Assembly: GCA_045597865.1 (NCBI GenBank)
Contig: JAZLKX010000052.1
Span: 202,470 to 266,469 of the forward strand
Origin: Bacilli bacterium
GTDB lineage: Bacteria; Bacillota_I; Bacilli_A; RFN20; CAG-826
DNA: 64,000 nucleotides
Direction: 5' to 3'
Below the pieces are notes generated by a model. The model saw only the letters and a list, made by a program, of their open reading frames with translations, was not told where the DNA came from and searched no databases. The translations under genes were made by a program, and so were the position numbers. Within the stretch, counting starts at the first letter, position 1, and each line of letters starts with the position of its first letter. Positions 23,025 through 54,631 of the stretch are shown piece after piece.

Positions 23025-23575
23025 TGCCAGGTATTACAAGTCAAATAAATGATTTTAATAAGAACAAGTTCATGGTACGTTTTAGCAACGTACCTAACAT
23101 GACGGGTTATGACAAGATTGATGTTCATGTGCTGAACAATTATGTACAGGCATTTAACATTCCAGACATTTCTGTTCCAATGCTTACATCAGTATTTGGC
23201 CATGAACGCCAGCTACACCCTAACACAATTGGTTCTCGTGATTTGCAGACTATCAATATGGAGTTCAAGATTGATGAACATATGTTTAACTTCTGGCTCA
23301 TGTATTCATGGCTGTATAACATGAGACACGGGCAAACCTGTGGTAAGAAAAACCTTAAAGGTGAAGAGCTTGTTAGAATGGACTGTATTGACTGTATTGA
23401 GCTCTGCTTGCTTGATAACGATAACCACCTAATTTCAAAACTGCGCTTTCATCACTGCATCATTAACAACATCAGCGCTTTGGATCTTTCATTCAAGAGT
23501 TCTGACTTAGGTACAATGGTAGTAACATTTGAAGTTGAAGACATGTCATTCCATGTTGAAACTGACGAGGAATAA
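23024..23575 (+). CDS. gp3: tail completion/tube terminator protein, gp3-like
   Basis: NKF...F, VQAFNIPDIS, FKIDE.MFNFWLMYSWL, LLDNDN, VTFE. Confidence 0.75.
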   Translation: MPGITSQINDFNKNKFMVRFSNVPNMTGYDKIDVHVLNNYVQAFNIPDISVPMLTSVFGHERQLHPNTIGSRDLQTINMEFKIDEHMFNFWLMYSWLYNMRHGQTCGKKNLKGEELVRMDCIDCIELCLLDNDNHLISKLRFHHCIINNISALDLSFKSSDLGTMVVTFEVEDMSFHVETDEE

Positions 23576-24285
23576 TGGAATTATCTAATCCAAATCATTG
23601 TGGCATCTGCGGGATTGTTTTTAACAACTCCCGCTCTTTGCTAATGCATGTAACACAAAAACATAACATGGACGCTAAGTTCTACTATGATAAAGTAAAG
23701 AAAGAAAAGAACGAAGGCATCTGTCCTTGTTGCGGTAATCAAACTGCATACATTGATTTTACTCGTGGCTATTCAAGATTCTGTTCAACAAAGTGTTCCG
23801 TTGCTTGGCAGAAATCTCATGCAGAAAAATCAGAAATCATTTGTAAAGAATGCGGCGAAAAATTTGAGGCTGACTCTAAGAACGCCGTTGCTATGGCATT
23901 TGCTCGCCACTTACGCAATGACCATCAAATGACACCTAAGGACTATTATGATAAGTATATGAAACTGGAAGGCGAAGGTGTTTGCCCTGAATGTGGCAAA
24001 GAAACTGCATTCCTTAAAATGTCGCAAGGTTATGCTAAGTTTTGCTCTCGTGAATGCACTCGTGCTGCCACACAACGAGAAAAAGCTGCTAACCGCGAAG
24101 AATTCAAACAGTTCAAAGAAGAACAGGCTCAGATTATCATAACTGAAGAAATGCGTCAGGAAGAATGGAAAAAAGAATGTGCTCGACGTTTAGCAGAGTT
24201 TGAAGCGCCGGAAAGGTGTACATTCAATAGAACTGATTTTGGGATCATTGGTTCATTTGGAACTATAACTGAGTGGCTCCAATAA
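23575..24285 (+). CDS. tandem zinc-finger protein
   Basis: Duplicated unit CxxC..H...H-M..K.YYDK....EG.CP.CG..TA......GY..FCS..C. Confidence 0.7.
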   Translation: MELSNPNHCGICGIVFNNSRSLLMHVTQKHNMDAKFYYDKVKKEKNEGICPCCGNQTAYIDFTRGYSRFCSTKCSVAWQKSHAEKSEIICKECGEKFEADSKNAVAMAFARHLRNDHQMTPKDYYDKYMKLEGEGVCPECGKETAFLKMSQGYAKFCSRECTRAATQREKAANREEFKQFKEEQAQIIITEEMRQEEWKKECARRLAEFEAPERCTFNRTDFGIIGSFGTITEWLQ

Positions 24286-28288: not shown

Positions 28289-29089
28289 ATGTTTAGTTAT
28301 TCTGAGATTTTCAATATACAAAAGACAACATTGCCTATCAATGCGAAAGAGCTTTCAGGCATTCTTTCACAAAAATCATTCATGGGCTTTGTTCAGTGTC
28401 CGTATAACCGTTTAATTGATACGCTTGAAGATATCTGTAAAGCTGATACTTACAAGGTATCTATCAACCCAAATGCTATGTATCAGAATGGCGCGAATCC
28501 GTTTCATCAAGCAGACTGCGTTATTCAGGTTGAAGGCTTGAGAAGCTTTGATGAATTTGTGAATAAAGTTGTTAGCACTGAAGATGCTAAAGAATGGACT
28601 GACTTCATGACCTATTCTGAAACATTCAAGGACGAAGTTCGTGTATTAAAGACGCAGGTCATCCATAAGTACCTTTGGAATGTACAGAACATCAATAATT
28701 GGTTTGAGACAACCGGAACTGCATTGCCAACAACTCGTCGTAATGAGCTGATTTCGTCATGGGAAGAGTTTAAGAAATCAGTGCTGTTAAGCACCGATCT
28801 GTACGGTTTCATTGATGCATGCGACGAAGGATCATTGCAGCAAGCAGTCAAATCGCTTAATAAGAACATCATCGCGAAACTGCAAAAGTATCGCCCTGAA
28901 CTTGATAGACATGTTCAGAATAATACAAAACGCGAAACTGACATAACTGTTAAGAACCCGATTGTGAATCGTATTTTCATTGTCTCTAACTATGCTAATC
29001 AATGTCAAAAAGATTGGCCGGCTATTAAGTTTACCAGGCTTGACCGTCGCAGTATGGACGCTATTAGCTTGTGGCAGGGAGTTAAGTAA
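28289..29089 (+). CDS. hypothetical late protein
   Basis: ATG 28289 lies just downstream of TATAAATA 28264; coupled to next gene. Confidence 0.65.
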   Translation: MFSYSEIFNIQKTTLPINAKELSGILSQKSFMGFVQCPYNRLIDTLEDICKADTYKVSINPNAMYQNGANPFHQADCVIQVEGLRSFDEFVNKVVSTEDAKEWTDFMTYSETFKDEVRVLKTQVIHKYLWNVQNINNWFETTGTALPTTRRNELISSWEEFKKSVLLSTDLYGFIDACDEGSLQQAVKSLNKNIIAKLQKYRPELDRHVQNNTKRETDITVKNPIVNRIFIVSNYANQCQKDWPAIKFTRLDRRSMDAISLWQGVK

Positions 29090-31992
29090 TGATTAAGAAT
29101 AGTGAATTTGACTTTTCATATGACTATCTTAGATTTGACACAACTTGGTTATTTGAATGGGATGTCCAGAATATCACTGACAATACCATTAAGTTTTATC
29201 CGTTCTCGGAACAGGGTAATAGCCGTACTTGGAAATTTAACGGTGATAACACAGCAACCGTAAAACAGCATAATGAATTTGTTTGGGATCCGACAAATCC
29301 TGTTTTGGAATATGATGCTAATAATGTTGATTCATGGGACGCTGCGCATCCGTTTAACACCACACGTTATCTTACCCCGGGTTCTTCATTCATTACATTA
29401 ACTAACACCATTGAAACCGTTGTCATTGATAACATTCCGCCGGCATTTGTATCAGACCGTGGCACAGAATATGTATGGATCTCAAATATAGCAGGCGGTA
29501 AAGCCAGCGAGCTACGTGAATACCGTTATTGTGAATACGTATTCAAAGACGAAGCTGGACTAGACTATAAACAGTTTGGCATTTTTATTGGCGAGCCGCC
29601 AGCCGCCGACAAAATTGAGGCGGCTCTAAAACAGGATTCACCACCAAAATCGGATGATCCTATTTGGAAGAAGGGCGGCGATTTTGCTAATCTTGTTTAT
29701 TTCTACAGCCGCCGTTATGACATGGCTTTAATTAACACAAACCTCATTGAAGAAGGCTCATTAAAGATTTCATCTGATGGTTTTCACACATACAAAATCG
29801 CATTTAATCTATGCTGTGCTACCGATGAAGGAAACGATGAAAATCTAAATTTGCTAAATGATGAAGGTTTGCGTATTCGTGTTTATGACATTGCTGGTAA
29901 CCATAATACATATTCATTTGGTCTGTTTGGAACTGATAAAGTTAAAATGACAAGTGAAGAATGGGAAGCTTGGCATAAAGCACATCCGAATTCTATCATT
30001 CGTACATGGATCTTAATTGATTCTATCAGCGACATTTCTGAACTTGATAAATGTGTAATTAAGTTCTATGACATTGAACCGCGAAACATGATTGTCAGCG
30101 AAAATGAACGCGGCTCCGTTTGGGTATCAATTTATAATCCTAACCGTGAATTTTGGGTTCTTGATACAGTTGGCCAATTAAAGCTGCATACATCAATAGG
30201 TAACATCGACGGCAGTACTATTGATAAAACAAAGATGAAGACTGAAGGTATCATTAAGTTTAAGGTTATTAACATTGAACAGTATGGTGCCGTTGAAGTT
30301 GAAGCGTGGGTCAAAACCGGTAATAAGTTATTTGATGATATGCTCATTACATCTACTTACGCTGAAGCAAGTCTTTCGCCGTGGATTGTTCAGGACGCTG
30401 ATGGGCGTAAGTATGATATTAAGAAATATGTTCCAAACTATTTAAAGTCAACAGACTATTATCAGTTCATCGAGTTCTTTGAACTTTATCTTAATACTTT
30501 ATACACAAACTTAACTAAAGGAACCAATATCTCAATTCTTGAAAAGATTGCTAAGATTAACGACTTTAATGATATTGACCGTATTGAACATGCTCTTGTA
30601 TGGCATTATGCAAAAGCATTTGGTTCTGAGTATGACATTGACTTACAGACGATGCTTGACTTAAATGTTGGTTTCTATAATGAAGGTTTCCTCAATAGCC
30701 GTAAAGAAGACGATGTTATTGATATTCTGAAATACGCATTAAAGAACCTGCCGCTCTACAACCAAGTTAAGGGTTCAGAAAAAGGTATTGTCATGGCATT
30801 GAAAATGTTCTCATTCTCATGCCGTGTAATCAATTTGTGGGCTAAACTTAAACCTGAAGTTGAAGAAAATCCTGACTTTATGGAACAAGACCGTATGTTT
30901 GATTTTTCATCATACTTCTTGACATCTAGATTTAACATTGAGCTAAATTCATTAACGGTTGATTTTCCGACCTTCAATGATAACATCTTTGCATTCATTA
31001 AATTTGTTAAGAGCATTAAACCAATTACACGCATACTTAACCTGATTAAGTATACTATCATTTTTGAATACGATTACTACTGGCTCGTGAACGATTACAT
31101 TCATGATGATATGGATGGACACCGCGAGGGCTGTTATCGTTATGCCATTCAGTGGAATGAAGACGATATTGCTGAAATGATTGAACGTTCAAAAGTTAAC
31201 TGGCATGTGATGCACGCTGATCGTATCTGGATAAACTATAACTGTGCTAACTGTATCACAACGCCTATGGAACGAGACGATGCTACTGGTGAATTGTTGC
31301 CAGCGGCACCTGATGACAGTGACATGGCCGATCCGCCTGATATGGTTTCGCTTTATAATTTGTTTGCATCATACATTGCTAACTCCAATGGAAAAATGGA
31401 ATTTAAGTACTCCGACCCTAGCTTAACTATTAAAGAAAAGGTTAGAAGCTATACAAAAGCTGGTGTTTCTGCTGAAACCTATGAAGAATTTTGGCATATA
31501 GATGGTTCGCCTGTTCGCATAACATATCATAAAGATAACTATGACGGTAGCCATGAAACTCGTATCGTTGAAAGTAAGGAAAAATCAAATGCATTGACTT
31601 TCAAGAAACGTTTCAGCCTTGACCAGGTTGACTGTGAAATGCTAGATACAGGTTTTTACATTTACCCCAAGACTGGTGAATTAGCTACATACTTAGCTGA
31701 ATTTGTAAAGCCTACTTATTACGCTGATGAAATTATAAAATCATTTGTTAAACAGCTAAGTACATGGACAGCTGAAACTAGGTATCGGCCGCTTAATAAA
31801 TGGAATATCACAAAAGTGGAATTACAAGACGAAGCCGGTGACTATCATACTGTGATAGATGTATTAGCAGTTGGTGGTCCGACTAAAGTTGTTATGACGG
31901 AGCACAACATTGAGTCTAATCCAACAATGCAAATGATTATTGACCATGTGCCTGGAACTGAAATTTTCCGAGCAGTTCCTATTGATGGATAA
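29089..31992 (+). CDS. baseplate wedge protein, gp7/tail protein I-like domain
   Basis: VPNYL...FIEFFELYL, DIDRI, LYNQVKGSEKGI...LK.F, IKPI. Confidence 0.6.
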   Translation: MIKNSEFDFSYDYLRFDTTWLFEWDVQNITDNTIKFYPFSEQGNSRTWKFNGDNTATVKQHNEFVWDPTNPVLEYDANNVDSWDAAHPFNTTRYLTPGSSFITLTNTIETVVIDNIPPAFVSDRGTEYVWISNIAGGKASELREYRYCEYVFKDEAGLDYKQFGIFIGEPPAADKIEAALKQDSPPKSDDPIWKKGGDFANLVYFYSRRYDMALINTNLIEEGSLKISSDGFHTYKIAFNLCCATDEGNDENLNLLNDEGLRIRVYDIAGNHNTYSFGLFGTDKVKMTSEEWEAWHKAHPNSIIRTWILIDSISDISELDKCVIKFYDIEPRNMIVSENERGSVWVSIYNPNREFWVLDTVGQLKLHTSIGNIDGSTIDKTKMKTEGIIKFKVINIEQYGAVEVEAWVKTGNKLFDDMLITSTYAEASLSPWIVQDADGRKYDIKKYVPNYLKSTDYYQFIEFFELYLNTLYTNLTKGTNISILEKIAKINDFNDIDRIEHALVWHYAKAFGSEYDIDLQTMLDLNVGFYNEGFLNSRKEDDVIDILKYALKNLPLYNQVKGSEKGIVMALKMFSFSCRVINLWAKLKPEVEENPDFMEQDRMFDFSSYFLTSRFNIELNSLTVDFPTFNDNIFAFIKFVKSIKPITRILNLIKYTIIFEYDYYWLVNDYIHDDMDGHREGCYRYAIQWNEDDIAEMIERSKVNWHVMHADRIWINYNCANCITTPMERDDATGELLPAAPDDSDMADPPDMVSLYNLFASYIANSNGKMEFKYSDPSLTIKEKVRSYTKAGVSAETYEEFWHIDGSPVRITYHKDNYDGSHETRIVESKEKSNALTFKKRFSLDQVDCEMLDTGFYIYPKTGELATYLAEFVKPTYYADEIIKSFVKQLSTWTAETRYRPLNKWNITKVELQDEAGDYHTVIDVLAVGGPTKVVMTEHNIESNPTMQMIIDHVPGTEIFRAVPIDG

Positions 31993-32012: not shown

Positions 32013-34562
32013 ATGGCCGCTTATAAAGAAAACCAAAAAGAGTGCGTGATTACCCGTCACGGACAAGCAAACATCTACAAGCAGGGTAATGGTTTTAAAT
32101 ATGCAATTATTGGTTATGCACTTATCAAAGATACTGGTAAGTGGCTGTATAATCAGTGCATGACTGCAGTTGGCGAAATTACTGCTGAAGAACTAATGGG
32201 TATTAACCCTGAAACACATGAACGTTATATTAACCCGCAGACCGGCCTGCCATATACTCAGGAAGAAGCTGAAATAGCTGCTGCTAAAGATGACGAATTT
32301 GATTTTAACCCGCTTCGTGAATTAACGCTCGATGACATCAAGAAACACTGTAACATTATTTTTAGAGATGTTACTTATTCTTATGATGAAAACTTGTTTA
32401 GAGCCAATCTACAACAATATCAAACGGCACTTAATAATCCTGAGAAATATCTGTTCCCCGTAAATTTCAGCTACAATTATGATGAAGCTGATTTAGTTGA
32501 TCTTGACGGTGACGGTAAAGCGAATGAATATCAGAATGATGCTGAAAACACATACATTTCGTATGACGTTATTTTGGACCGTAAGTTAGTGAATGTCATC
32601 AATGTTACAGGCGACCAGACATTTGATGGTATCATTTATTTAGCTCGTCCATACATGAATGAACCTCAGGATGATGGCCTTGATATTATTGACCCACAGG
32701 TACCTATCCTATTCGCAATTCAGTATTTTGCAGTTGACAAGCTAATGATTCTTAAAGATCAGAATGAACGCCTTGTTATGAACGTTGAAATGCATGTTGG
32801 ATATGCAAGATATGAACAGGATGATGCCGGCAATTCAAAGTCAACTGATAACGTTGTGACTATCAATGGAAAGATGCCTGCACCATACAATGAGAACGGC
32901 TGGGTACAAGGCATTCATTTAGCAAATGATGGTTCATCTAATACAATCGTTAAAGATGCTGAAGGCTATGAAACAACCAATAACCTATTCATTTCAACTT
33001 TAGGAAGCGAAGAGACACAGTCATTTGATACATTTGCTAAACTAAATATCATGTCACAAGCAAAAGGCAGTGTAAGTGAGTCAACGCCGCAGTTAATGTT
33101 CTCGCTTGTGAATGATAACTATAATAAGACATGGAATGGTCAGCGCCTTGCATTCAATTACGCATCAGGCACAGCTGGTTCATTATTCCGCATTCATGAA
33201 ATCAAGGGTATCGCAAAGAATCGTATTAACTTTGAACTTCTTGGTGTGAATAACATGTACCGCAATGTTAAGGGTGCATGGGGTAACTCATTTATCTATT
33301 CACAGAACAACGAAATCCCGCAGTCTGCGTACAACAACTTCTTCATGAATTCTGATGGAAACGTAATGTATTCTCATCAGACCAATAACATGTCATTTAT
33401 TGATTCTCACTACAATATAGTACAGTCCGGTCATGAAGCTTCTGGACGTTGGCCTGGTGTAAATAACATGACATTCTTTGGTACAAGCAATGCAGTGGTT
33501 ACACCATTCTATTCAATTAAGTACTATAAAGGACGTAAAGGATATAAAGGCACTAAGGGAAGTAAGGGACGTGAGGTGATGATTCCTTATTCAGTCGGTG
33601 GTTATCTTTCCAACCACTTGTTGCTTGATTCTGACTACACATTCCTGAATGGTCATAACAACAGCGACTTCCATGCAACATACATTGCATCACCATCGGC
33701 AAAACACGTCTTTACTGAGTATTCACAACACGACCTAGAATTAGGCAATATGCTTGGTTACACAAACAATAACAGCGGTAACCTAATCGCAATTGGCCGT
33801 GGTTTGAATTATACACACGGTAATGGCGATAAGATTATTTTAGGTCACTTTAATGAAAATGATGTTGACCCAGATAACGTTCTTATCGTTGGTGATGGAT
33901 TCTTGTCACCTGAATACTTCGCAGATATTAGCGGCATGTTCAATGAAGCAAACAACAATAACCGCTTCTATGATGCATTCACTGGACGAGGTGATATGGT
34001 TAAATGGTATCGCCATAACTTGCTAACAGTTAACCGTAATGGTTGGATTGGTATATCCGATTATACTCACCCAGAAAACTCAGCAAGATACGGCTTTAGC
34101 GGTATCACCGCTTACAACGATGGCGCTACATATAATATTCCGTTCTCATCGGTATATGCTAAACTGAATGTTTATGACTCAATGAAGGAGTTCCAGGATA
34201 TCATTGATGGTTACACAACTAAAGTTCGTTCAATCGTTAACACAATGCCAACAAACAAGAGCATTGTAATTTCTGGCGAAACTGACCTTGAAAAATACTT
34301 CGGTAAATCTATATCGGAAATTCACTCTAACTCAATTATCAACGTAACGTATCAGACTACCGCTACACGCACCGATAACGATTTCGTAACACGCATTAAA
34401 GCGCCGTACATGTACATCGGCACAGATCCTGATGATAACAATAAGGTTCGTCTAATGAAATCATATGACTTTGTTAAGATCTCGGCCTACAACTCTCAAC
34501 AGTATTTGTATTTGCGTGATACTGAGAATAACCTTACTGGTTTCTTTAAGATAAATAATTAA
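32013..34562 (+). CDS. putative tail fibre (paralog 1)
   Basis: Asn/Gly beta-rich repeats; IILGHFN..VLIVGDG..NLLTVNRNG fibre head/neck-type motif; GxK repeat. Confidence 0.6.
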   Translation: MAAYKENQKECVITRHGQANIYKQGNGFKYAIIGYALIKDTGKWLYNQCMTAVGEITAEELMGINPETHERYINPQTGLPYTQEEAEIAAAKDDEFDFNPLRELTLDDIKKHCNIIFRDVTYSYDENLFRANLQQYQTALNNPEKYLFPVNFSYNYDEADLVDLDGDGKANEYQNDAENTYISYDVILDRKLVNVINVTGDQTFDGIIYLARPYMNEPQDDGLDIIDPQVPILFAIQYFAVDKLMILKDQNERLVMNVEMHVGYARYEQDDAGNSKSTDNVVTINGKMPAPYNENGWVQGIHLANDGSSNTIVKDAEGYETTNNLFISTLGSEETQSFDTFAKLNIMSQAKGSVSESTPQLMFSLVNDNYNKTWNGQRLAFNYASGTAGSLFRIHEIKGIAKNRINFELLGVNNMYRNVKGAWGNSFIYSQNNEIPQSAYNNFFMNSDGNVMYSHQTNNMSFIDSHYNIVQSGHEASGRWPGVNNMTFFGTSNAVVTPFYSIKYYKGRKGYKGTKGSKGREVMIPYSVGGYLSNHLLLDSDYTFLNGHNNSDFHATYIASPSAKHVFTEYSQHDLELGNMLGYTNNNSGNLIAIGRGLNYTHGNGDKIILGHFNENDVDPDNVLIVGDGFLSPEYFADISGMFNEANNNNRFYDAFTGRGDMVKWYRHNLLTVNRNGWIGISDYTHPENSARYGFSGITAYNDGATYNIPFSSVYAKLNVYDSMKEFQDIIDGYTTKVRSIVNTMPTNKSIVISGETDLEKYFGKSISEIHSNSIINVTYQTTATRTDNDFVTRIKAPYMYIGTDPDDNNKVRLMKSYDFVKISAYNSQQYLYLRDTENNLTGFFKINN

Positions 34563-34567: not shown

Positions 34568-37500
34568 TTGGAAAATATGAAGATTATTTTAACAGAAGAT
34601 TTTAAGAATAGTACAATTCTCGCGGAGAAAGGCATTCGTTGCATTCTTCGCGGTTTTGCATTAGTAAATGATAGCCGACATTGGCTGCAAAAACTATATA
34701 ACAGCGATTCATATAATTTTGAATCTATTACGCTGGAAGATCTTCAGGAACACACAACATTGGTAACTGATGAAGACAAGCATGATCCTGATATCTTAAA
34801 TAACTTGTTTGACATCACATATGAACCCTGTCTTGAACTTACAACGCCAGAGGACATGGAATGTCCTATGTGTAAAGGTACTGGCGAAGTTGATGGCCAC
34901 GTATGTCCTAAATGTGAAGGTAAGAAAACTGTAAAAAGACAGAATGAAAAAGGAACCGTTCTTGGTGGTGAAAAGTTTGGCACTTATAAGATTCGTATTA
35001 ACTCAATGCGAAACAATAAGTCAGAAAACGGCATTCAAGGCACATATCAGGCAATCGTTCTAATCGGTGAAAAATATACAGAAGATACAGTACACGTAAT
35101 TACTACAAACAAATCTTACATTGGTATCATTCTGTACTTTGATAATGCAGATGCAACTGTAGCACAGGCTGCTGGTGTTCACGAGTCTGAAGACGGGTTA
35201 GTAATTGGACCTGATTCTGCATTTACGATTAACTTCCAATTTTCATTATCTCAGATTCACATGGTTGATGATGAAACTGGTCCAACTATTGAACCAGAAT
35301 ACAATCTTATCATGAAGCATTCCTTCCAGAAGGACCAGACAACCACGCAGTTGAACATCCCTGGTATTTTCCTTGTGCCTTCAGGAAAAGAATACACAAA
35401 CCGCGTAGACCTTGAAGATGGTCGTAAGATTGAACATCTTCAGATTGGTTATCTTGATAAGACATTCAACCTCATTCCAGATACTTATAAAAACAATAAC
35501 ATTTTCAATGTAACGCCGCGCTTTAACATTTTTGATGAACATAATGATAAGTTTGTTAAACCGCAGGTTATGCTATCATACGGCGTTAAACCCAATAAAA
35601 GTGATTTGTTTTCAAATCAGGCGGTCGCCATTGAATATGATAAGAAATGGTTCTCGATGAACGAAAAGGCTCCGACCGGCAATTCTCGTTTTGATTTGTT
35701 CGGCGGCGCCACCAAAAAAGAAAATTCATCATATAATGATGCTGACTTCTATAACACAACCGGTTATCTCCGTCTTGTGTCTGACCGCGGTTATCATTAC
35801 TCAGGCAATAATCTGACTGAGGTTTTGTCAAATGCAAACAGCGCAGGTATTTATGATGGCGCGCTGTATGTGTCAGATAATAACTGCATTGGTGCTTTAA
35901 ATTCATCAGCTATAAAAACATTAGATTTACATGCTATTGATACTGAAGGTATTACTGCCGACGGTATTAGTGGTGGCATGCTTATTGATAGCAACCGTTC
36001 AACTTTCGGTAATCTTTCCGGTCTTACTGCTATTGGAACTCATAAAGCTTCTGCTTTTAATGAAAAATATGTTAGCAGCAATACATATAAGGATTCAGAA
36101 AATGATCCTTACTTCTGTAAGGCATGTAATGGCAAAGGCAAAATGATAAAAGCATGGGTCATCACGCATATTCGTTTTAACATAGATGACCCAATTGAAT
36201 ACTACACAAAGGATAATAAATGGCTAGAAACTTTAGCCTATGAACCTGAAGTTAGAAAATTTGATACTAAAGAACATGCTGATGTTTTTATAAGTTTAAA
36301 CTTTAGAGATGATGGCCGTGTTTATGCCGTTGAAGCTGATATGAATGGCATTACTTGTGAAACTTGTAATGGCGATGGACGCGTTGGTGCATACACATGG
36401 CCTGGCCGTTCAATGTTCTATGGTTTGAATACATCGTCAGTTGACTTCTGTGGTTACAACAATACATTCATTGGACATAAAGGTTTGTTATCAAACTATG
36501 GTCATGACGCTATCATCTTCGGTAAACATAATGCATGTGGTAACCGCGAATATGATATGTGTATTAAATGTTCAGGCGAAGGCCGTTTAACATGTGAAAC
36601 CTGTAATGGTGCTGGTAAAATCATTGGCCATCCTTTGGTTGAATGTTCGTGCTGCAATGGATTTGGCTATGTCAATTATAGCGCTTCATACTGTACATTA
36701 TGTAATGGCGAAGGTTATGTAAACGGTGAACTGTGCTACATGTGCAACAATACACGGTATGATTTGCCGGGTATTAATGAATCGTCATGCTCAGCGTTTA
36801 TATCTGGATATGATGCCATTTATGATTGCCCAGTATGTTTAACAAAAACACAGATTCTTGATGAAAACACACTTCAACCAGTTGACTGTCCTGACTGTGA
36901 TGGCTGCGGACGTGAGCCGTGCGTTATCTGTGCCGGCGCAGGATTTATTGAAGGCTATGAACATCCTCTCGCTACTTCTGCATGTCCAACGTGTTCTAAT
37001 ACATTGATAAAATGTGACTGGTGTAATGGCCAAGGCTATTATGGTAAATACATTAAATGCGAAACCTGTGATGGCACTGGCGTATTCAACGGCGAAAAAT
37101 GCCCAGCATGCGACGGTCACGGATTCCTTAACGATATCTGTAAGTATTGTAATGGCGACAAACAAGTATGTAAAACATGTGAAGGTTACGGCGATGTGAC
37201 CTGTGATGTTTGTGAAGGAACATCAATAATTGACTGCCCTGAATGTAACTCACCTAGTTTGGTTAAATGCGATCTTTGTGAAGGTGAAGGTTATGTAGAT
37301 GGCGAAACCTGTGCTCAATATGTTGGCGAATATAACGCAAAAACTTATGCCGACTGGGCTAAGACTATTGAAACTGAATCCGATGCTAATTGTCCGTTCT
37401 GTAATGGAACCGGCCTTGAACCGGCACATGCAATGATAAGATATTCATTAGCCGATAGTCGAGATCTTCCTTTATCAGATGAATACTATGCCTATCCAGA

Positions 37501-40438
37501 ACCATCAGAAAAAACTACTAAGTACATCATTGTTGCTGCTGATTTTATCAATGGTGCAGATATAAGTGCCAATGCGCGTGTAATGACTGACGCGTATGAA
37601 ATGTACAGCTATACCATTAAAGAAAATGTCGTTGGTCCTGATGGTGAAACTACTACTGTTTATAACACTGTTGAAAAGGAACGCCAACTATTTGAAACTA
37701 TTGCTGTTGCTGATAGCGACGAAGCATGGCTTCGCCCAGTTAATGACATCTGGCAAATGAATAGCAAGTTACTTAAAGATACTGTTAAATATGGTGCTTC
37801 TCCAAAGGTATTTAATTCGGTTGCTGAAATTAATGAATTTATCAATGAACATGCCGATCGCGTGTTCAGCTGGCAGCTAGGCGGATATATAGACGGCTGG
37901 GAAAATTATGGTATACCTGATTGGGAACTCATTGACGGCGTGAACCTCGATGAAACAACTACACCAGCCGATTATTATTTTGAACCATATTTCGGCGAAT
38001 ATAGAACTTTGCTGTTTGTATTATCCTATGATTCATGTGTACCCGAATATAACTGTACTCATTATGATTCTTTATATGATAATTTGATTTACTCAAACAA
38101 CTGGTTTATGACACTAAAGAAACCGTTTAACGGCTATAATGAAGAAGTTAACCCCAGCCAGTATCATAAAAGCTACATTACTTTTAAAACTGAAGCAGAA
38201 GCTGAGGCTGCATTGCTATCAATTACAACTGAATGTAACAACCAGCGCATCGAGCCAAGCTACTTTGTTGAGAATGCTTCTGACAACGAGGTTATAGGTC
38301 ATGTATGTACGCATTGTCATGGCACAAAACGTGCAAACAAATTTAAGTATAAGTGTCCAAAATGTAGCGACATTTCTGAATATAGAAATACGCCGTTAAT
38401 CGTTAAAACCATAACACCGGATGAAGGTGATGTAGATCCATGGACACCGGAATATCCAGTACTGTTTAAGAACTTCTATACAGAATCAGCAGGATTTGGC
38501 AACATAAATCCTAACATTAACTTATTAGGAAGACACGCATGCGAACTTTGTGATGGCCTTGGATATGTTAGCCGTGAGCAACGTGTTGAATACCTTGGTG
38601 AACAATTTGAAACTCAATATGAAACGATTTTGCATGATCCGCATGCATGGTACAATTACATTGACAAGAAATATGACTATGGAAAATCTACAGTCGGCGC
38701 TGAACGCGGCATTCCGCAAATGCTTTTCATTGGTACAGAACCTACTTCCGGAAATCGTGCATATCTTGAAAACTGGATTTCGCCAAAATTGCATCCGATG
38801 ATGGGTTTATCTTCTATGTGCCCATGTTGTAGTGACATGTTTAATAAGTTCTTAACACCGCAAATCTTTAACTGCGGTGAGGAAGACATTTACGGCTACT
38901 CAACATACAAGAACAAGAACGTCCATGATCGGATCTGGCCTAGCGTTGGTTCAGAAAAAACAGACTTCCTGCTGGAAATGGGCGCTGGCTCACTTTGCAC
39001 AACATGTAACTTTAATAATCGTTCACGTTTACAAACTATCAAATGTTTTGCTTGTCATGGTCGCGGCGTTACGGTTGACTCAGGCAGAATCTGTGAGAAT
39101 TGTCGTGGTACTGGTAAACTGGACAACGCTGTATGCAACCGTTGTAATGGTACTGGTCTGAATCCAAATGTTACTTGTTCCACTTGCGGCGGTAAAACAA
39201 CAATAGAAATGGAAATTAACTTAGGTTCAATAGACTGTCCTAACTGCATCGGCGGTAGTGTAACATGCGAAGACTGTAACGGTATTAAACATTGGTACTG
39301 TACTACATGCGGCGGCGACGGCGAAGTTGAGTTCCAACCAACTATTGCGTATGAAGACGGTAAAGTCGTTGCTGTTGGCGATGGCTACTTCTACAAGAAC
39401 ATGATGCTTGACCAAACTACATTTGATATGTATCGCGATTACATCAACATTCGTCCGGATGATAACTGTGACTTGAATGTTGGACAATACTTAAAGAAGA
39501 TGAATCTGTTCTCAGTTGAAAATAACGGAAAATTGCTTGTGCATAACAACAACTATGACCAAATTCCTGACCCACATGTTACTCATAACATCGCAAGTAA
39601 CTTCTTCGCGGTTCGTAGCTGGGCTAAGTACAATGAACTACAAGAACGCTTTGCTAATCTGCAAAACGGCTGTTATGCTCCTGATGCAATTTACTTCACC
39701 AAGCGTACTGCACATAATGAAGAATGGAAACTTCGTATTCGTGAACTTGACTACCTATTGAACGATTCTTACATTAAGACCAACGCATCAATGCTAAAGA
39801 CTGCCGCGCTTAACCAAGCCATCTACGACTTCCATCGTAAGAATACAACATTCTTGCTAAGACTTGGACCTATCATTTACTATTCATGGAAGGGTCGTAA
39901 AGGTATTAAGGGCGGCAAGGGTCTTAAGGGTCTTAAAGGCCTCAAGGGTATGAAAGGCTTTAAGGGTATGAAGGGCGTTGGCCGTATCATCAACAACACA
40001 TTCGTTGCCTTCAAGGGTCAAACTCTTGGCATTAAGGGTGCAGGTGCTGGTATGAAGGGTCTTAAGGGTCTTAAAGGTACTAAGGGATATGAAAACCTTG
40101 AATTGCATATTACTGGAATTAGAACTAAGTTCTACATCGCCGACATTCTAGCAGCAGTAAAACAAGAATTTGGCCGTAGCATTTCTAATACAGGTAACCT
40201 TGGTAAGAACTCGGAAACTTATACATTCTATTGCCTGAATGGCGACCCGTCTGAAAACCTTTACTTCAAGGGTGTTCGCCTTCGTAAGATGGCAAACGGC
40301 AACTATCAGACACTTAACTCAGTAAAGGGTGTCAAGCCTGCTCAGGTTCAAAGAATCGTTTATAAAGACAACGGGTATAACGGTGAATACGGTGTTATGA
40401 ACTTTGACTATGCATACGATAACCGATTCCTAGCTTAA
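34568..40438 (+). CDS. giant putative tail fibre (paralog 2) with ~34 CxxC(xGxG) DnaJ-type zinc motifs and GxK repeats
   Basis: Shares G.ALxxD..WL, PQ.M.S, IIFGKHN, VGDG, NLF.V..NG and YY..KGRKG with 32013-34562; Cys motifs counted by hand. Confidence 0.7.
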   Translation: MENMKIILTEDFKNSTILAEKGIRCILRGFALVNDSRHWLQKLYNSDSYNFESITLEDLQEHTTLVTDEDKHDPDILNNLFDITYEPCLELTTPEDMECPMCKGTGEVDGHVCPKCEGKKTVKRQNEKGTVLGGEKFGTYKIRINSMRNNKSENGIQGTYQAIVLIGEKYTEDTVHVITTNKSYIGIILYFDNADATVAQAAGVHESEDGLVIGPDSAFTINFQFSLSQIHMVDDETGPTIEPEYNLIMKHSFQKDQTTTQLNIPGIFLVPSGKEYTNRVDLEDGRKIEHLQIGYLDKTFNLIPDTYKNNNIFNVTPRFNIFDEHNDKFVKPQVMLSYGVKPNKSDLFSNQAVAIEYDKKWFSMNEKAPTGNSRFDLFGGATKKENSSYNDADFYNTTGYLRLVSDRGYHYSGNNLTEVLSNANSAGIYDGALYVSDNNCIGALNSSAIKTLDLHAIDTEGITADGISGGMLIDSNRSTFGNLSGLTAIGTHKASAFNEKYVSSNTYKDSENDPYFCKACNGKGKMIKAWVITHIRFNIDDPIEYYTKDNKWLETLAYEPEVRKFDTKEHADVFISLNFRDDGRVYAVEADMNGITCETCNGDGRVGAYTWPGRSMFYGLNTSSVDFCGYNNTFIGHKGLLSNYGHDAIIFGKHNACGNREYDMCIKCSGEGRLTCETCNGAGKIIGHPLVECSCCNGFGYVNYSASYCTLCNGEGYVNGELCYMCNNTRYDLPGINESSCSAFISGYDAIYDCPVCLTKTQILDENTLQPVDCPDCDGCGREPCVICAGAGFIEGYEHPLATSACPTCSNTLIKCDWCNGQGYYGKYIKCETCDGTGVFNGEKCPACDGHGFLNDICKYCNGDKQVCKTCEGYGDVTCDVCEGTSIIDCPECNSPSLVKCDLCEGEGYVDGETCAQYVGEYNAKTYADWAKTIETESDANCPFCNGTGLEPAHAMIRYSLADSRDLPLSDEYYAYPEPSEKTTKYIIVAADFINGADISANARVMTDAYEMYSYTIKENVVGPDGETTTVYNTVEKERQLFETIAVADSDEAWLRPVNDIWQMNSKLLKDTVKYGASPKVFNSVAEINEFINEHADRVFSWQLGGYIDGWENYGIPDWELIDGVNLDETTTPADYYFEPYFGEYRTLLFVLSYDSCVPEYNCTHYDSLYDNLIYSNNWFMTLKKPFNGYNEEVNPSQYHKSYITFKTEAEAEAALLSITTECNNQRIEPSYFVENASDNEVIGHVCTHCHGTKRANKFKYKCPKCSDISEYRNTPLIVKTITPDEGDVDPWTPEYPVLFKNFYTESAGFGNINPNINLLGRHACELCDGLGYVSREQRVEYLGEQFETQYETILHDPHAWYNYIDKKYDYGKSTVGAERGIPQMLFIGTEPTSGNRAYLENWISPKLHPMMGLSSMCPCCSDMFNKFLTPQIFNCGEEDIYGYSTYKNKNVHDRIWPSVGSEKTDFLLEMGAGSLCTTCNFNNRSRLQTIKCFACHGRGVTVDSGRICENCRGTGKLDNAVCNRCNGTGLNPNVTCSTCGGKTTIEMEINLGSIDCPNCIGGSVTCEDCNGIKHWYCTTCGGDGEVEFQPTIAYEDGKVVAVGDGYFYKNMMLDQTTFDMYRDYINIRPDDNCDLNVGQYLKKMNLFSVENNGKLLVHNNNYDQIPDPHVTHNIASNFFAVRSWAKYNELQERFANLQNGCYAPDAIYFTKRTAHNEEWKLRIRELDYLLNDSYIKTNASMLKTAALNQAIYDFHRKNTTFLLRLGPIIYYSWKGRKGIKGGKGLKGLKGLKGMKGFKGMKGVGRIINNTFVAFKGQTLGIKGAGAGMKGLKGLKGTKGYENLELHITGIRTKFYIADILAAVKQEFGRSISNTGNLGKNSETYTFYCLNGDPSENLYFKGVRLRKMANGNYQTLNSVKGVKPAQVQRIVYKDNGYNGEYGVMNFDYAYDNRFLA
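39890..40090 (+). repeat. 9-bp periodic coding repeat (Lys-Gly-X)n
   Basis: KGRKGIKGGKGLKGLKGLKGMKGFKGMKG and MKGLKGLKGTKG; shorter copy at 33528-33573. Confidence 0.9.
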
Positions 40439-43653: not shown

Positions 43654-44262
43654 ATGGCTGGTAAAGTAAGTATAAAAAATTGGTTTGAACAAAAATCAGT
43701 AAAGCTATCTGATTCATTCCTTGTCGAGTTTGACGGCAATGAATCTTTTAGATGCGCAGGTTTTAGCATTCCAAAAGTTGCTGAATGGAATGAAGAAGTT
43801 CATAAGTTTGGCAATACAGCCCATAAGATTCTTATACCTAAGATTGACATATTGCAAGAATTAACGGTTGAACTGTTTGAAGGCTATACCAAAAAGACAA
43901 CCGGTGGGGAAACATTAAAGACTGCATGCCAGAGTTTTTTCTGGAAAATCGCTACTGGCGGTTTTACAAATGGGCGAGGCTATGTTAACTACAGCGATTA
44001 TGATGCAACAGGTTATAATAAACTAAAAGGTCAATATCAATTCAGCAAGCCAGATTTTGAAAAAGTGACGATTTACATCTTAAACAACAGTTTAAACAAA
44101 GTTGTTTATAAGTATGAATTCTATGACTTGTTCTTAACCAAATACACGCCGTATGAGCTTTCATATAGTGATGAAGCTATTACTAAGTGGTCGCTATCTT
44201 TCGTCTTTAGTAAGTTTATCAAATCGGTACCTGATGACCCTGATGATGGAGTTGTTAAATGA
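43654..44262 (+). CDS. tube-fold protein (gp54/gp19-like)
   Basis: FSIPK, LTVELFE, YEFYDLFLTKYTPYELSY....KWSLSFVF. Confidence 0.6.
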   Translation: MAGKVSIKNWFEQKSVKLSDSFLVEFDGNESFRCAGFSIPKVAEWNEEVHKFGNTAHKILIPKIDILQELTVELFEGYTKKTTGGETLKTACQSFFWKIATGGFTNGRGYVNYSDYDATGYNKLKGQYQFSKPDFEKVTIYILNNSLNKVVYKYEFYDLFLTKYTPYELSYSDEAITKWSLSFVFSKFIKSVPDDPDDGVVK

Positions 44263-46998: not shown

Positions 46999-47895
46999 CT
47001 AATGTCCGTGGTATTTAGCCGAGTACTTGGACTGCATAGCAGCGGACTGAGCCTTGGCTTTTGCCTCTTGTTTCTGCATTTCCTCGTTTTCTTCCTTAAC
47101 CATGGCGTTAGTGACATCCTGAATCATTTCAAGTTCAGGCCATGACGTATCGTCTGGAATATAGCAGCCAACATACTTCGTTACACGCAGTATTACGTTG
47201 ATAATGTTACGAATGTTCATTTGACCAAAAAGACCATCATCAGTAATGACAAGTAACATATGATTATTGCGGCCACAGTTTTTACATGGGAAATCAAATT
47301 CCAAATTGAAACCAGCTTTATACTGACTGCAAATCGCCGATAAGTAAGCATAATCATAAGCATTTAGGTTCAATACATATTCAATTGGATTTTCCACGCG
47401 TAGCATACGGGCAATGAACTCAATCTCCTTGTCTTCATATACAAGGTCCAGATCTTTAACTGTTGCCATTTTTAAAGTTAGCACCTGTCTGCTTTTGGGT
47501 AGGAACACATCAGTTGGCGGCGCTGATAGCTGCAACACTGGAATATCGTCTAATAACAGTTTCTGCGTAAAAGTAGACCCACAGTTCTGACACTTGATGT
47601 TGAATGTATATCCATTTTCTTTCATAAATGAGTTTGCGCGTAGCCAGAATGCCAAGTATAGTCTATCGCATAATAACAAATCTTCAATTGGAAATGTCAT
47701 ATAGAAGCAACGGTCAATAATTTCATTGATAACTGCAGTCGCTGTATATTCATTCAATAGCGCCAGAAACTTAACATCCTGAACAGTTAGAAAGCGCCCC
47801 TTGATTACTGTGCCCTCAGGATATAGCAAGCCACGGCTTGGCAGATCATTCAGGTCAACCTTTAGATAATTGTATTTACTATCTTGCGTTAGCAA
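46999..47895 (-). CDS. second gp26-like baseplate hub assembly protein
   Basis: LPSRGLLYP, DRLYLAFWLRANS, CQNCG, LPKS, CKNCG; paralog of 17542-18369. Confidence 0.7.
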   Translation of the reverse strand: MLTQDSKYNYLKVDLNDLPSRGLLYPEGTVIKGRFLTVQDVKFLALLNEYTATAVINEIIDRCFYMTFPIEDLLLCDRLYLAFWLRANSFMKENGYTFNIKCQNCGSTFTQKLLLDDIPVLQLSAPPTDVFLPKSRQVLTLKMATVKDLDLVYEDKEIEFIARMLRVENPIEYVLNLNAYDYAYLSAICSQYKAGFNLEFDFPCKNCGRNNHMLLVITDDGLFGQMNIRNIINVILRVTKYVGCYIPDDTSWPELEMIQDVTNAMVKEENEEMQKQEAKAKAQSAAMQSKYSAKYHGH

Positions 47896-51877: not shown

Positions 51878-52135
51878 ATGACTACGCATGAAGAACATCT
51901 AATAGAGCTCTTTGAGAAGTCTGAAAAGGAATCTATTCCTGGAACAGCGTATTTTGAAGCATTGACTGACTTTGCTGAAATCTGTTTCAATACAGCAAAA
52001 GCTGAAGGTAAAGAACTTACCATTGCAGATATTCATTCATATATCCACGCAGCGTACCGTGTAGGTTTTGAGCGCGGATATAAGGCTGGACGCGAATACG
52101 AGCAGGAACTGAAGAAACTTGATGCTGAAGACTAA
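51878..52135 (+). CDS. hypothetical protein, 85 aa
   Basis: AAGGA RBS; AYRVGFERGYKAG motif. Confidence 0.65.
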   Translation: MTTHEEHLIELFEKSEKESIPGTAYFEALTDFAEICFNTAKAEGKELTIADIHSYIHAAYRVGFERGYKAGREYEQELKKLDAED

Positions 52136-52238
52136 AAAAAATGAACTTTTTCATTTTTTCCTTATATACCATTGACAAGTTCTTTTGAAATAGTTATATT
52201 TTACTCGTAAAACAAAATAAACAACAACTGAGGATTTT

Positions 52239-52583
52239 ATGGGTACCTGCAACTTCGCCCGTCACATTGTACGCCGCCAGAATAGCCGTGGCGCCACTGT
52301 CTATGCCCATTGGTACAACTTTCTGCGTTATATCGCTGATCATCCGAACTGCACGCGTAAGAGCTGCAGTGACGCTTGTAAACCGGTTAGCTGGTACGAT
52401 CAGTGGGCCACCAACACCTGGAGCGAAATGGTAAAGCAGGGGTTCATTAAGAAAGAACGCTGTGGCCGCAACTTCACGTACAGTATCACTCGCGAAGGCT
52501 TGACGCTGCTTGATGAATGTGGTATGAAGGATTATGACAGACAGCACCCTAAGACAGGTGAAATCGTATATGCTCTTTTGTAA
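52239..52583 (+). CDS. putative winged-helix DNA-binding protein
   Basis: SEMVKQGFIKKER....TYSITREG wing pattern; first gene behind promoter. Confidence 0.55.
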   Translation: MGTCNFARHIVRRQNSRGATVYAHWYNFLRYIADHPNCTRKSCSDACKPVSWYDQWATNTWSEMVKQGFIKKERCGRNFTYSITREGLTLLDECGMKDYDRQHPKTGEIVYALL

Positions 52584-53127
52584 AGAAAAATCCATTGACG
52601 AGGTACTTATGGAATTTGCACGAATGAAGCGTGCTATTGATATTGCTCAGGCCGTAGCGACACAGTTCAACTGGGAACCGGTTATCTCATACTCCAGTGA
52701 TAGCAACAGCGTAAAACAGGTGATTTTGTTCAACCTCAATGGTTGTCCAGAAATCAAGGAATTGCTGACAGAAGCTCGTAGCCTGGCTAGCGGCATGAAC
52801 ACTGAACGTAAAGTCAATGGCAATTATACCGTGCTTTCAATTTGTCCTGATGACGGCGACTTCAAGATCTCTGAGCTGATCGTAACGAAAGACGCTGCTG
52901 TGAAGATGTTCATTGAAAAGTCGCTGGGCCTTGACCCGGGTGATGTGCTGTGTGACTCTAAGTGGTCAAAATGGACTCAAAAGACTGACGCTGAAATTAT
53001 TGAATATATGAAGCAGCAGATCGGTAATTTACGCGATATCTTCCAGATTGCGAACAAGGTCGCTAAAAAGGTCCGTAAGGAAATTGACATCCAGTTTGAA
53101 AGTTTCGCCGGCTGGAAGGCAAAATAG
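52534..53127 (+). CDS. hypothetical protein (start uncertain)
   Basis: 197-aa ORF with early-type codon usage. Confidence 0.65.
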   Translation: MTDSTLRQVKSYMLFCKEKSIDEVLMEFARMKRAIDIAQAVATQFNWEPVISYSSDSNSVKQVILFNLNGCPEIKELLTEARSLASGMNTERKVNGNYTVLSICPDDGDFKISELIVTKDAAVKMFIEKSLGLDPGDVLCDSKWSKWTQKTDAEIIEYMKQQIGNLRDIFQIANKVAKKVRKEIDIQFESFAGWKAK

Positions 53128-54612: not shown

Positions 54613-54631
54613 TGTAATTAGCAGCAGATTT

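Follow-up and report, generated by a model that had tools for sequence, protein, structure and literature searches.

Genomic context and layout of the fibre-like gene

The window analysed here, a stretch of 64,000 nucleotides, contains a gene for a large fibre-like protein (database copy P0003, 1953 aa), which is surrounded by genes for a portal, a major head protein, a baseplate wedge, a tube and a hub. A shorter paralog, P0002, is encoded directly upstream. The features of the two genes are listed below; residue numbers of the fibre-like protein are counted from the TTG frame (34568).

32013–34562, plus strand: upstream 849-aa paralog P0002; its N-terminal ~390 aa are common with the fibre-like protein
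34577–40438, plus strand: fibre-like gene, 1953 aa from the ATG at 34577; the open frame also offers a TTG at 34568
34577–35707, plus strand: N-terminal region homologous to the paralog (hhalign probability 97%, E 9e-11)
34862–34930, plus strand: small insert 1, two CxxC motifs 10 residues apart, no cargo
36116–36379, plus strand: small insert 2, cargo of ~73 aa between CKACNGKG and CETCNGDG
36401–36553, plus strand: three ~16-aa "hhhG" repeats (FYGLN / FIGHK / IFGKHN), seen in the sequence
36554–39343, plus strand: large insert with motifs m1–m30, residues 663–1592 (930 residues, 30 CxxC)
39344–39877, plus strand: post-insert conserved module (YEDGKVVAVGDG ... KMNLFSVENNG ...), matched by phrog_8745 "tail fiber protein" (E 9.2e-6)
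39887–40087, plus strand: collagen-like (G-x-K)n repeats, seen in the sequence
40103–40435, plus strand: conserved C-terminal domain, 95% identity to P0004 and P0005

The identification of the product as a tail fibre is based on the gene neighbourhood and on weak PHROG matches. The match to phrog_8745 extends over 200 residues of the post-insert region; among the 12 PHROG matches of this region, 10 fall in the tail category and eight are described as tail fiber or collagen-like tail proteins, in families that have no curated threshold. The Gly-x-Lys triplets form two runs (residues 1774–1840); the Pfam Collagen profile (PF01391) scores 16 bits on the protein (E 0.01), below its cut-off of 27.2 bits, and has a precomputed match in 9 of the 23 listed homologs. 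The C-terminal domain had no family match in Pfam or PHROGs, and the N-terminal region had none there except for Anti-TRAP and DnaJ zinc-knuckle matches to small insert 1. The protein might thus be some other baseplate or internal virion component, or might not be found in virions, as no fibre family matched above curated thresholds and neither terminal domain has a known fold. We consider this unlikely, since the gene lies within the baseplate and tail module, the product combines collagen-like repeats with tail-fibre PHROG matches, and receptor-binding proteins typically show such a size and mosaic variability.

Cysteine motifs

The fibre-like protein contains 85 Cys residues and 35 overlapping (34 non-overlapping) C..C motifs, of which 30 non-overlapping ones lie in the insert; a recount thus agreed with the initial annotation, which had given 30 motifs for the insert and 34 for the whole protein. 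The strict form CxxCxGxG is present in 20 motifs. When the protein was shuffled (n = 2000), 3.7 ± 1.9 CxxC motifs were obtained, with a maximum of 11 against the real count of 34. The 13 other ORFs of the window have 0.9% Cys, with five C..C in 7502 residues.

The DnaJ_CXXCXGXG profile (PF00684) scored 58.7 bits on the whole protein (E 7e-16), passing its gathering score of 32.7, with the best stretch at residues 1477–1530 over profile positions 1–65; the homolog P0006 reached 72.3 bits. Apart from PF00684, the Pfam scan of the whole protein listed only a sub-threshold match to Anti-TRAP (PF15777), and no J domain or DnaJ C-terminal domain was revealed; the two Anti-TRAP scores obtained, 19.4 and 22.4 bits, miss the gathering score of 32 bits. 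Because of the identity of the motifs and their even numbers within the family (see below), we infer that they bind zinc.

The two small inserts had been described as each bracketed by one motif pair; their coordinates are correct, and orthologs without them confirm that they are inserts. Small insert 1 (residues 94–122) is absent from P0011–P0014 and P0055. It matched Anti-TRAP with E 0.0094 and E 1.3e-4, below the curated cut-offs, and is a putative single zinc knuckle hairpin of the Anti-TRAP type. Small insert 2 is absent from P0010, P0022 and P0055 and has a larger cargo instead in P0006–9.

A single insertion at one point

The motifs that flank the large insert lie where they had initially been placed: AIIFGKHN at residues 648–655 (36509–36532) and VVAVGDG at residues 1600–1606 (39365–39385); the latter contains a fourth "hhhG" repeat (VAVGDG), located after the insert. 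In P0002, the uninterrupted turn has IILGHFN (33834) and VLIVGDG (33879–33899) separated by 8 residues. The comparison of these two neighbours led to the original proposal that the insert leaves and re-enters its host at one point.

The proposal itself is borne out by an ortholog, P0055, in which 17 residues with no Cys motif take the place of the 930 of the fibre-like protein. The colinear matches of P0055 to the fibre-like protein cover residues 4–496 (E 2e-100), 612–662 (67% identity, E 4e-18) and 1593–1948 (E 3e-77). The second match joins the "hhhG" repeat segment (36401–36553) to P0055 452–502. The 930 residues are, therefore, one insertion at one point of the fibre-like protein.

The paralog contributes less. 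Its relationship to the fibre-like protein stands for the N-terminal ~390 residues, but BLASTP of the two neighbour proteins found almost nothing else: a KG-repeat match (E 0.019) and a 19-residue N-terminal match. The KG repeat precedes the module in the 849-aa protein and follows it in the fibre-like protein. As for the equivalence of the loops, direct hhalign comparison of the flanks alone gave E 0.07 and 0.01, and a single 73-column alignment (E ~1e-3) appeared once the insert columns had been removed. At the sequence level, the single-insertion case is carried by the ortholog series, and the argument from the 849-aa paralog is weak.

Motifs and cargo are gained or lost together

The insert is divided into the following parts:

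36560–36583, plus strand: m1, first motif of the DnaJ-CR-like base, proposed partner m30 (family and DnaJ comparison)
36593–36910, plus strand: branch A, m2–m7; P0053 has only m2 and m7, and P0052 adds m3 and m6
36920–36994, plus strand: m8–m9, proposed inner pair of the base (FIEGYEHP...SACPTC; family and DnaJ comparison)
37013–37291, plus strand: branch B outgoing arm, m10–m17; m11 and m12 are a dispensable side hairpin
37391–38317, plus strand: m18, 301-aa tip domain (residues 946–1246, 37403–38305) and m19; P0011 lacks all three
38354–38995, plus strand: returning arm, m20, m21 and m22, with 58-, 89- and 55-aa modules between motifs
38996–39199, plus strand: m23 and variable hairpin block m24–m27; homologs have 0, 2, 4 or 8 motifs in the block; location of the best PF00684 stretch
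39236–39322, plus strand: m28–m30, the same in every large-insert homolog; the insert is closed by m30

The number of motifs in the insert is even in all 24 family members (0, 4, 6, 8, 24, 26, 28, 30 or 34), a count that includes aligned degenerate motifs (m8 as DxxC, m15 as C..F/L). The bracketed indels among the homologs show the gain and loss of motifs in pairs that had been suggested as a check. Compared with P0050, P0053 adds m2 and m7, and P0052 further adds m3 and m6; exactly m11 and m12 are missing from P0010 to P0014, P0016 and P0018 (7 of the 20 large-insert homologs); P0011 lacks m18, m19 and the tip domain together; and P0006 differs from P0007 by three motifs, a 148-aa domain and three further motifs. 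Whole branches are thus present or absent, in agreement with the earlier idea of a branched insert. These data support a tree, consisting of a DnaJ-like base, two branches and side hairpins, instead of one 15-rung ladder.

The minimal four-motif insert of P0050 aligns over all four motifs with the zinc finger of DNAJA3 (2ctt, E 0.033), matches the cysteine-rich domain of E. coli DnaJ (1exk, E 4.7e-5) and spans positions 1–65 of 65 of PF00684 (E 0.0095). The motifs of DnaJ reportedly pair 1 with 4 and 2 with 3. The alignments favour the same nested pairing at the base of the insert, as initially supposed, with m1 probably paired with m30 and m8 with m9; in branch A, the nested pairs would be m2–m7, m3–m6 and m4–m5.

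We also considered whether the forms with 0, 4, 6 and 8 motifs are ancestral stages and rejected the idea. In a midpoint-rooted tree of the C-terminal region alone (333 columns, 30 rows, with long branches of P0055 and P0058), they fall inside large-insert clades, P0050/51 with P0020 at 96/99 and P0052–54 with P0012/14 at 82/88. Therefore, the series represents reduction or recombination and not stepwise growth; recombination may be behind the placement of the small forms in this tree.

The tip domain has 49% identity to P0004 and 32% to P0005, compared with 86–95% for the fibre core, and is the fastest-evolving part of the protein. Motif pairs bracket the cargo segments, and these vary more than any other part, which is consistent with the earlier suggestion that the insert displays extra domains. 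The tip domain had no usable match in the ESM Atlas and no family in Pfam or PHROGs; the isolated cargo pieces likewise had no family in Pfam or PHROGs and matched no known binding fold.

A lineage with a split gene

In one lineage, two genes take the place of one, with the break inside the insert. The N-half proteins (935–937 aa, 8 full-length members) have 17 CxxC each and align to P0022 1–850; the C-half proteins (1143–1170 aa) have 13 CxxC each and their own conserved N-terminus, and align to P0022 929–1978. In six of six cases, the C-half and the N-half occur on equally long contigs, and so the two probably share a contig. No DNA loci of the split form were found in viral contigs (searched with P0023) or metagenome contigs (with A3). 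Since the motif count of each half is odd and the sum is even, at least one clasp would have to form between two chains.

Structure predictions

Complex prediction of residues 1245–1600 against residues 810–945 with four Zn gave a score of 0.66 (runs 0.65, 0.66 and 0.71), and the best of three controls gave 0.00. Of 80 solved complexes, 58 attain the mark reached, as do 2 of 110 mismatched pairs; these counts are only rough here because the prediction used a custom alignment with a small molecule alongside and two halves of one chain, beyond the calibration. At least 79% of the contacts were in agreement between runs, with partner pLDDT of at least 80, and ~290 confident inter-arm contacts were obtained against 0 in the controls. 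The lowest-error predicted contacts join C1263/C1266 (m20) to C901/C904 (m17); m11, m12, m21 and m22 lie outside the confident interface, and the predicted contact 1555–890 could fit m16–m28 or neighbouring rungs. The outgoing arm is thus predicted to pack against the returning arm, with m17 beside m20 around the m18-domain-m19 unit, and the out-and-back course proposed at the outset is favoured by the model.

AlphaFold2 models of the whole insert (mean pLDDT 49.8, pTM 0.36) and of the 849-aa paralog (mean pLDDT 60.1, region of interest below 50) were poor, and neither had a Foldseek match in the PDB at E ≤ 0.001. The low-confidence insert model retrieved 6ekb, 2ctt and 1nlt at E ≥ 0.19. VIA-align wide gave a best Z of 4.5, to small alpha/beta folds over ~50 residues, which is not meaningful. 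For the paralog model, Foldseek listed only weak, non-significant beta-solenoid and tailspike rows; tentatively, the "hhhG" repeat segment may be a solenoid-like host of the insert.

According to a different reading, only adjacent motifs share a zinc; the insert would then be a floppy loop of separate knuckles and domains, fastened at its ends alone. An account of Anti-TRAP (PMC2896485) describes two adjacent CXXCXGXG motifs that can bind one zinc per 53-residue chain, and small insert 1, with two motifs and one putative zinc, looks exactly like this arrangement. Even motif numbers and two-motif losses fit such a string of knuckles as well, and AlphaFold2 gave no confident global fold. However, the complex prediction sets the Cys of m20 on those of m17 and not of m21, P0011 loses m18 and m19 along with the intervening domain, the three plus three motifs of P0006 are symmetric about a domain, and an end-tied loop would leave the split-gene form hanging on a single clasp. 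We therefore regard this arrangement as improbable.

Proposed architecture

Based on these results, we propose a zinc-clasped branched display tree in a phage fibre-like protein, a reading that we consider reasonably probable as a whole. The gene product would be a large fibre, probably a trimer, from the baseplate module of a T4-like jumbo phage, and its trimeric state, presence in the virion and receptor binding are presumed from the data above. Between the third and fourth "hhhG" repeats, the chain would leave the fibre and come back 930 residues later, and the excursion would form a tree of Zn(Cys)4 clasps with two CxxC(xGxG) knuckles per clasp. The base would be a module of four motifs (m1, m8, m9 and m30) similar to the DnaJ cysteine-rich domain, with a three-rung hairpin (m2–m7) off its first arm and a large branch (m10–m29) off its second. 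In the large branch, the outgoing arm would be packed on the returning arm, with m18 and m19 clasping the 301-aa tip domain and m17 and m20 forming the next rung; side hairpins (m11–m12, m24–m27) and modules of 55–90 aa would hang from the arms. Each clasp would tie both ends of whatever is beyond it, and therefore the host fold would be unaffected when domains are added, exchanged or lost, and the gene could even be cut in two. The result would be a thin, rigid, metal-stapled stalk that shows fast-evolving binding domains sideways, presumably for host recognition; such side display from the fibre is the likely function.

In a broader form, pairs of CxxC knuckles would serve as a general "insertion adaptor" that builds a nested branched display tree in one fibre turn, with branches that are swapped, pruned to a DnaJ-like stub, or encoded by two genes and reassembled between chains. 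This form would imply 17 clasps per chain, 15 of them in the insert, and we find the case for and against it evenly balanced.

The insert could instead be a built-in chaperone or assembly module of the DnaJ type, or a thiol-redox module, that aids folding of the fibre or virion. The motif family originates in a chaperone, and the DnaJ cysteine-rich domain contributes to substrate handling. This explanation is, in our view, very improbable: the J domain and the DnaJ C-terminal domain are missing in the Pfam scan, the cargo domains and not the motifs vary fastest, as expected of a host-facing surface, and the relatives P0055 and P0050 dispense almost wholly with the insert. Least probable, by a little, is that the cysteines form disulfides or bind iron and lend stability to an extracellular protein, much as in a knottin or rubredoxin: the protein probably ends outside the cell and Cys4 knuckles can bind Fe, as in rubredoxin, but the 20 full CxxCxGxG motifs have their matches in zinc-binding families (DnaJ, BSD2 and Anti-TRAP), the cytoplasm in which phage fibres fold is reducing, and the first Cys of m8 is replaced in 12 of the 24 family members by Asp (DxxC), which can be a metal ligand and not a disulfide partner.

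Relation to known systems and significance

The closest known system to the proposed zinc-clasped tree is the cysteine-rich domain of type I DnaJ/Hsp40 proteins (PF00684; 1exk, 2ctt, 1nlt), an out-and-back hairpin with two zinc sites that is itself inserted into a beta domain. It has the same CxxCxGxG motif, and the four-motif base aligns with it motif for motif. The insert differs from DnaJ in having 30 motifs instead of 4, with hairpins and whole domains nested in both arms, and the protein belongs to a phage structural module and lacks the J and DnaJ C-terminal domains. Anti-TRAP (PF15777; 2bx9, 3lcz) and BSD2 (PF25436; 6ekb) are likewise small zinc-binding CxxCxGxG proteins, but, unlike the clasps of the insert, they are free-standing regulators or chaperones. 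Bound metal as a structural element of virion fibres is known from T4, with zinc in gp12 and iron in gp37; the T4 fibres bind axial metals by His of three chains, whereas here putative Cys4 knuckles would lie in one chain, in a side excursion.

Long tandem CxxCxGxG arrays in uncharacterised proteins (for example P0060, P0061, P0073, P0092 and P0099) have the same motif with a similar spacing of 7–12 residues in dozens of copies. They differ in being plain arrays at a terminus, joined to hydrolase-like, helicase-like or Sel1-repeat regions, with no nested cargo-bearing insertions inside a fibre. Among 249 matches, only 11 had E ≤ 1e-10, and these comprised the fibre family and two other proteins, P0060 and P0061. 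A tblastn search of phage records retrieved two huge uncultured phages with ~200 residues of motif array at 31% identity; the one match inspected was a 469-aa ORF that is not a fibre homolog. Literature searches found no description of a virion fibre with such a zinc-clasped insert.

The host range of a phage depends mainly on its fibres, and the known fibres diversify by swaps of the C-terminal tip or by loop mutation. Here, the variable part would ride on a side stalk that can do almost without a hydrophobic core, spends only ~11 residues and half a zinc ion on each rung, and tolerates insertion, deletion and even gene fission. If the proposal is true, the stalk may serve as a compact modular scaffold in protein engineering and as a template for zinc-stapled display scaffolds, and annotators should be cautious, because a "DnaJ central domain" in a large phage genome can be a structural protein. 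It would also be a natural case of hierarchical domain insertion through metal clasps and a new structural principle for virion appendages, and these fibres would represent a previously undescribed way to build and evolve the receptor-binding organs of virions.

Cysteine Motifs of P0001

The long fiber-like protein carrying the cysteine-motif insert (P0001) and its shorter neighbor (P0002) are encoded by the following genes:

32013–34562, + strand, P0002, 849 aa
34568/34577–40438, + strand, P0001, 1956 aa from TTG or 1953 aa from ATG

P0001 contains 85 cysteines; its C..C motifs number 35 when overlaps are counted and 34 when they are not. Residues 663–1592, numbered from the TTG, hold 30 of these motifs, the strict form CxxCxGxG numbering 20. 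Shuffling of the protein 2000 times gave 3.7 ± 1.9 motifs with a maximum of 11; cysteine accounts for 0.9% of thirteen other ORFs of the window, and no other frame of the window was found to have more than four C..C motifs. The coordinates quoted in the initial annotation were all correct on re-check, and its observation of the cysteine motifs is confirmed.

Genomic Context and Probable Fiber Identity

The window is the final 64 kb of a 266-kb contig, which was binned in a 1.74-Mb assembly of 58 contigs. Its structural module is T4-like:

10640, portal
14524, scaffold
15596, major head protein
17542–18369, baseplate hub-like gene, phrog_150 match
18450, baseplate wedge
23024–23575, tail-tube-like gene, phrog_45 match
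42898, gp5-like OB hub
43654–44262, tail-tube-like gene, phrog_45 match
46999–47895, − strand, baseplate hub-like gene, phrog_150 match

The tail-tube-like and baseplate hub-like genes are each present twice in one window, which suggests that tail and baseplate components of this jumbo phage are duplicated. Within the module, an HNH/homing-endonuclease-like ORF (23575–24285, + strand, 236 aa, four C..C motifs) directly follows the first tail-tube-like gene. The ORF immediately upstream of both paralogs (29089–31992, + strand, 967 aa) has no Pfam or PHROG match and may represent an additional fiber or baseplate component. The G+C content is 45–51% at 52000–62000, versus 36–41% elsewhere in the window, and this region includes an ATPase-like gene (53314–54540) and an HNH-endonuclease-like gene (54813–56405, 530 aa). 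The GC skew is strongly negative at 48–50 kb, the location of a terminase-like gene on the − strand.

P0001 is best read as a putative fiber. The region after its insert matched phrog_8745, “tail fiber protein” (E = 9.2e-6, 200 residues); 10 of the 12 PHROG matches of this region fall in the tail category, and eight of these carry a description as a tail fiber or a collagen-like tail protein. In addition, P0001 has two collagen-like runs of Gly-x-Lys triplets, under the Pfam cut-off.

Insertion at a Single Site

The initial annotation regarded the two proteins as paralogs, with the insert interrupting a loop that is continuous in P0002. Homology between them was recovered only over about 390 residues at the N-terminus (97% probability in hhalign, E = 9e-11); the IILGHFN/VLIVGDG turn of P0002 aligned with the flanks in P0001 as a single piece only once the insert columns were removed, and then only at E ~1e-3. 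The decisive evidence for a single-point insertion comes instead from orthologs, P0055 foremost, found by searching with the C-terminal region of P0001. Three blocks of P0055 (838 aa) align colinearly with P0001: 1–426 with 4–496 (E = 2e-100), 452–502 with 612–662 (67% identity, E = 4e-18), and 520–834 with 1593–1948 (E = 3e-77). Where P0001 has the 930-residue insert, P0055 has 17 residues, which include no Cys motif, and both small inserts (34862–34930 and 36116–36379) are missing; the proposal of one insertion at one point is borne out by this colinearity. The host segment of P0001 consists of ~16-residue repeats (FYGLN / FIGHK / IFGKHN / insert / VAVGDG), and therefore the excursion exits between two consecutive repeats. 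Distant relatives (L005 2362–5619, P0056, and P0058; about 30% identity) have about 95 residues at the same site, with no Cys motif and an apparent additional “hhhG/N” repeat; this position seems to be generally prone to changes in length.

Putative Zinc Scaffold and Its Variation

Whole P0001 passes the Pfam DnaJ_CXXCXGXG profile (58.7 bits, cut-off 32.7), and no J domain was found in a Pfam scan of the whole protein. The minimal insert of the ortholog P0050 covers positions 1–65 of 65 of this profile (E = 0.0095), matches the E. coli DnaJ CR (1exk, E = 4.7e-5), and aligns with the DNAJA3 zinc finger (2ctt) across all four motifs (E = 0.033). In DnaJ, motifs 1+4 and 2+3 reportedly share two zincs. 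Because of homology to this arrangement, the insert motifs, numbered m1–m30 in order, would pair as m1–m30 and m8–m9, with branch A (m2–m7) extending from the first arm of the DnaJ-like base and branch B (m10–m29) from the second. Small insert 1 (34862–34930) resembles Anti-TRAP, in which, according to PMC2896485, one zinc is held by two adjacent motifs.

Alignment of the inserts of 24 family members revealed 0 motifs in P0055, 4 in P0050, 6 in P0053, 8 in P0052, and 24–34 in 20 large forms. The number is even in all 24 when two aligned degenerate motifs are counted (m8 as DxxC in 12 members, m15 as C..F/L in P0016 and P0018). P0050 retains m1, m8, m9, and m30; P0053 has m2 and m7 in addition, P0052 also m3 and m6, and the large forms m4 and m5, while m10–m29 all lie between m9 and m30. 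Exactly m11 and m12 are missing in 7 of the 20 large forms (P0010 to P0014, P0016, P0018), the m24–27 block comprises 0, 2, 4, or 8 motifs across homologs, P0006 and P0007 differ by a 148-aa domain with three motifs on either side, and P0011 is without m18, m19, and the 301-aa tip domain between them. These paired differences indicate that motifs are gained or lost in brackets around an enclosed segment. The 4–8-motif forms might be taken for ancestral stages, but a tree built from 333 columns of the C-terminal region (30 rows, midpoint rooted, long branches for P0055 and P0058) nests them within large-insert clades (96/99 and 82/88 support), and pruning or recombination is the better reading of their origin.

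Predicted Packing of the Arms

Since AlphaFold2 modeled the whole insert poorly (pLDDT 49.8, pTM 0.36), the returning arm (1245–1600) and the outgoing arm (810–945) were predicted as a two-chain complex with 4 Zn. This pair scored 0.66 (0.65, 0.66, and 0.71 in individual runs), and none of the three controls exceeded 0.00; the same mark is reached by 58/80 solved complexes and 2/110 mismatched pairs, counts that are only approximate for a prediction with a custom alignment and a ligand. With at least 79% of contacts agreeing between runs and a partner pLDDT of at least 80, the prediction supports binding of the two arms to each other. The lowest-error contacts place C1263/C1266 (m20) against C901/C904 (m17), so that m17–m20 would be nested around m18–domain–m19. 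The confident interface involves m10 and m13–m18 on one side and m19, m20, m23, m28, and m29 on the other, with m23 or m28 as candidate partners of m16; m11, m12, m21, and m22 lie outside it, which fits local hairpins. Sequence searches of the PDB found no solved complex similar to the arm pair; the model could be remembering local DnaJ-like geometry.

Natural Split of the Gene

In the P0021/P0022 lineage, the fiber gene was found in two pieces. The N-half is represented by eight full-length proteins (935–937 aa, 17 motifs each; 76% identity to P0022 1–850, followed by about 100 unique residues), and the C-half by six (1143–1170 aa, 13 motifs each) with their own conserved N-terminus in common and 61% identity to P0022 929–1978. 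In 6/6 cases C-half and N-half occur on identically sized contigs (7940, 10669, 23150, 35846, 58515, and 63129 bp). The C-halves are sister to unsplit P0022 (93/93), and therefore the split is a fission; the break falls within one of the cargo domains on the outgoing arm. The odd number of motifs per half and their even sum imply at least one putative inter-chain clasp, and the host repeat would be completed only through reassociation of both arms. P0048 (481 aa) begins exactly at m22 and P0049 (992 aa) at m1; both could reflect additional splitting of the gene, or a gene call made downstream of a frameshift.

Variability of the Cargo

Compared with its two closest homologs, P0001 has 86–95% identity in the fiber core and C-terminus, 66–80% in the putative zinc scaffold, and 49% and 32% in the tip domain; in more distant homologs the scaffold motifs are invariant and the cargo, i.e., the segments enclosed by motifs, is unalignable. 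Family and fold searches detected no family or fold for the cargo. A short pattern of the type F-x-[TS]-x-E-[ED]-A-x-x-[FWAL], in which a strand precedes a helix, recurs in the cargo of P0001 (e.g., residues ~570–580, ~1075–1090, ~1205–1220) and of homologs P0006–P0015. Many of the inserted modules that share it are not otherwise related, as would be expected if one small alpha/beta unit had been used to assemble the cargo. Fold matches were limited to weak ones with ClpS-, RRM-, and SPOR-like folds (Z ≤ 4.5).

Rarity of the Architecture

Against 1.84 billion representatives, the insert gave 249 matches at E ≤ 1e-3 and only 11 at E ≤ 1e-10, nine from the fiber family and two others (P0060, P0061); the remaining matches are to unrelated proteins with plain tandem arrays of CxxCxGxG. 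Very long arrays of this kind occur in the unrelated metagenomic proteins P0060, P0061, P0073, P0092, and P0099: P0060 has roughly 40 copies with a period of about 11 residues after a hydrolase-like DUF7379 region, and in the others the array is joined to a helicase-like or Sel1-repeat region. The structure and role of such proteins appear uncharacterised. A 469-aa ORF of a 635-kb uncultured phage (LR745206.1; L010 4966–6375) ends in a CxxC array with 31% identity to P0001 766–926, and a comparable stretch occurs in another huge phage, LR756504.1.

Full-text literature searches found no published description of a zinc-motif phage tail fiber of such kind; PMC12619734 and PMC5313236 deal with DnaJ genes of the chaperone kind and with a small early protein. 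Overall, our analysis supports the main points of the zinc-zipped hairpin proposed initially, with the correction that the scaffold would have the form of a tree and not of a ladder. Both building blocks, the phage fiber and the zinc hairpin of DnaJ type, are already known, and what is new is their variant here. The architecture of P0001 is unusual enough to warrant experimental work.
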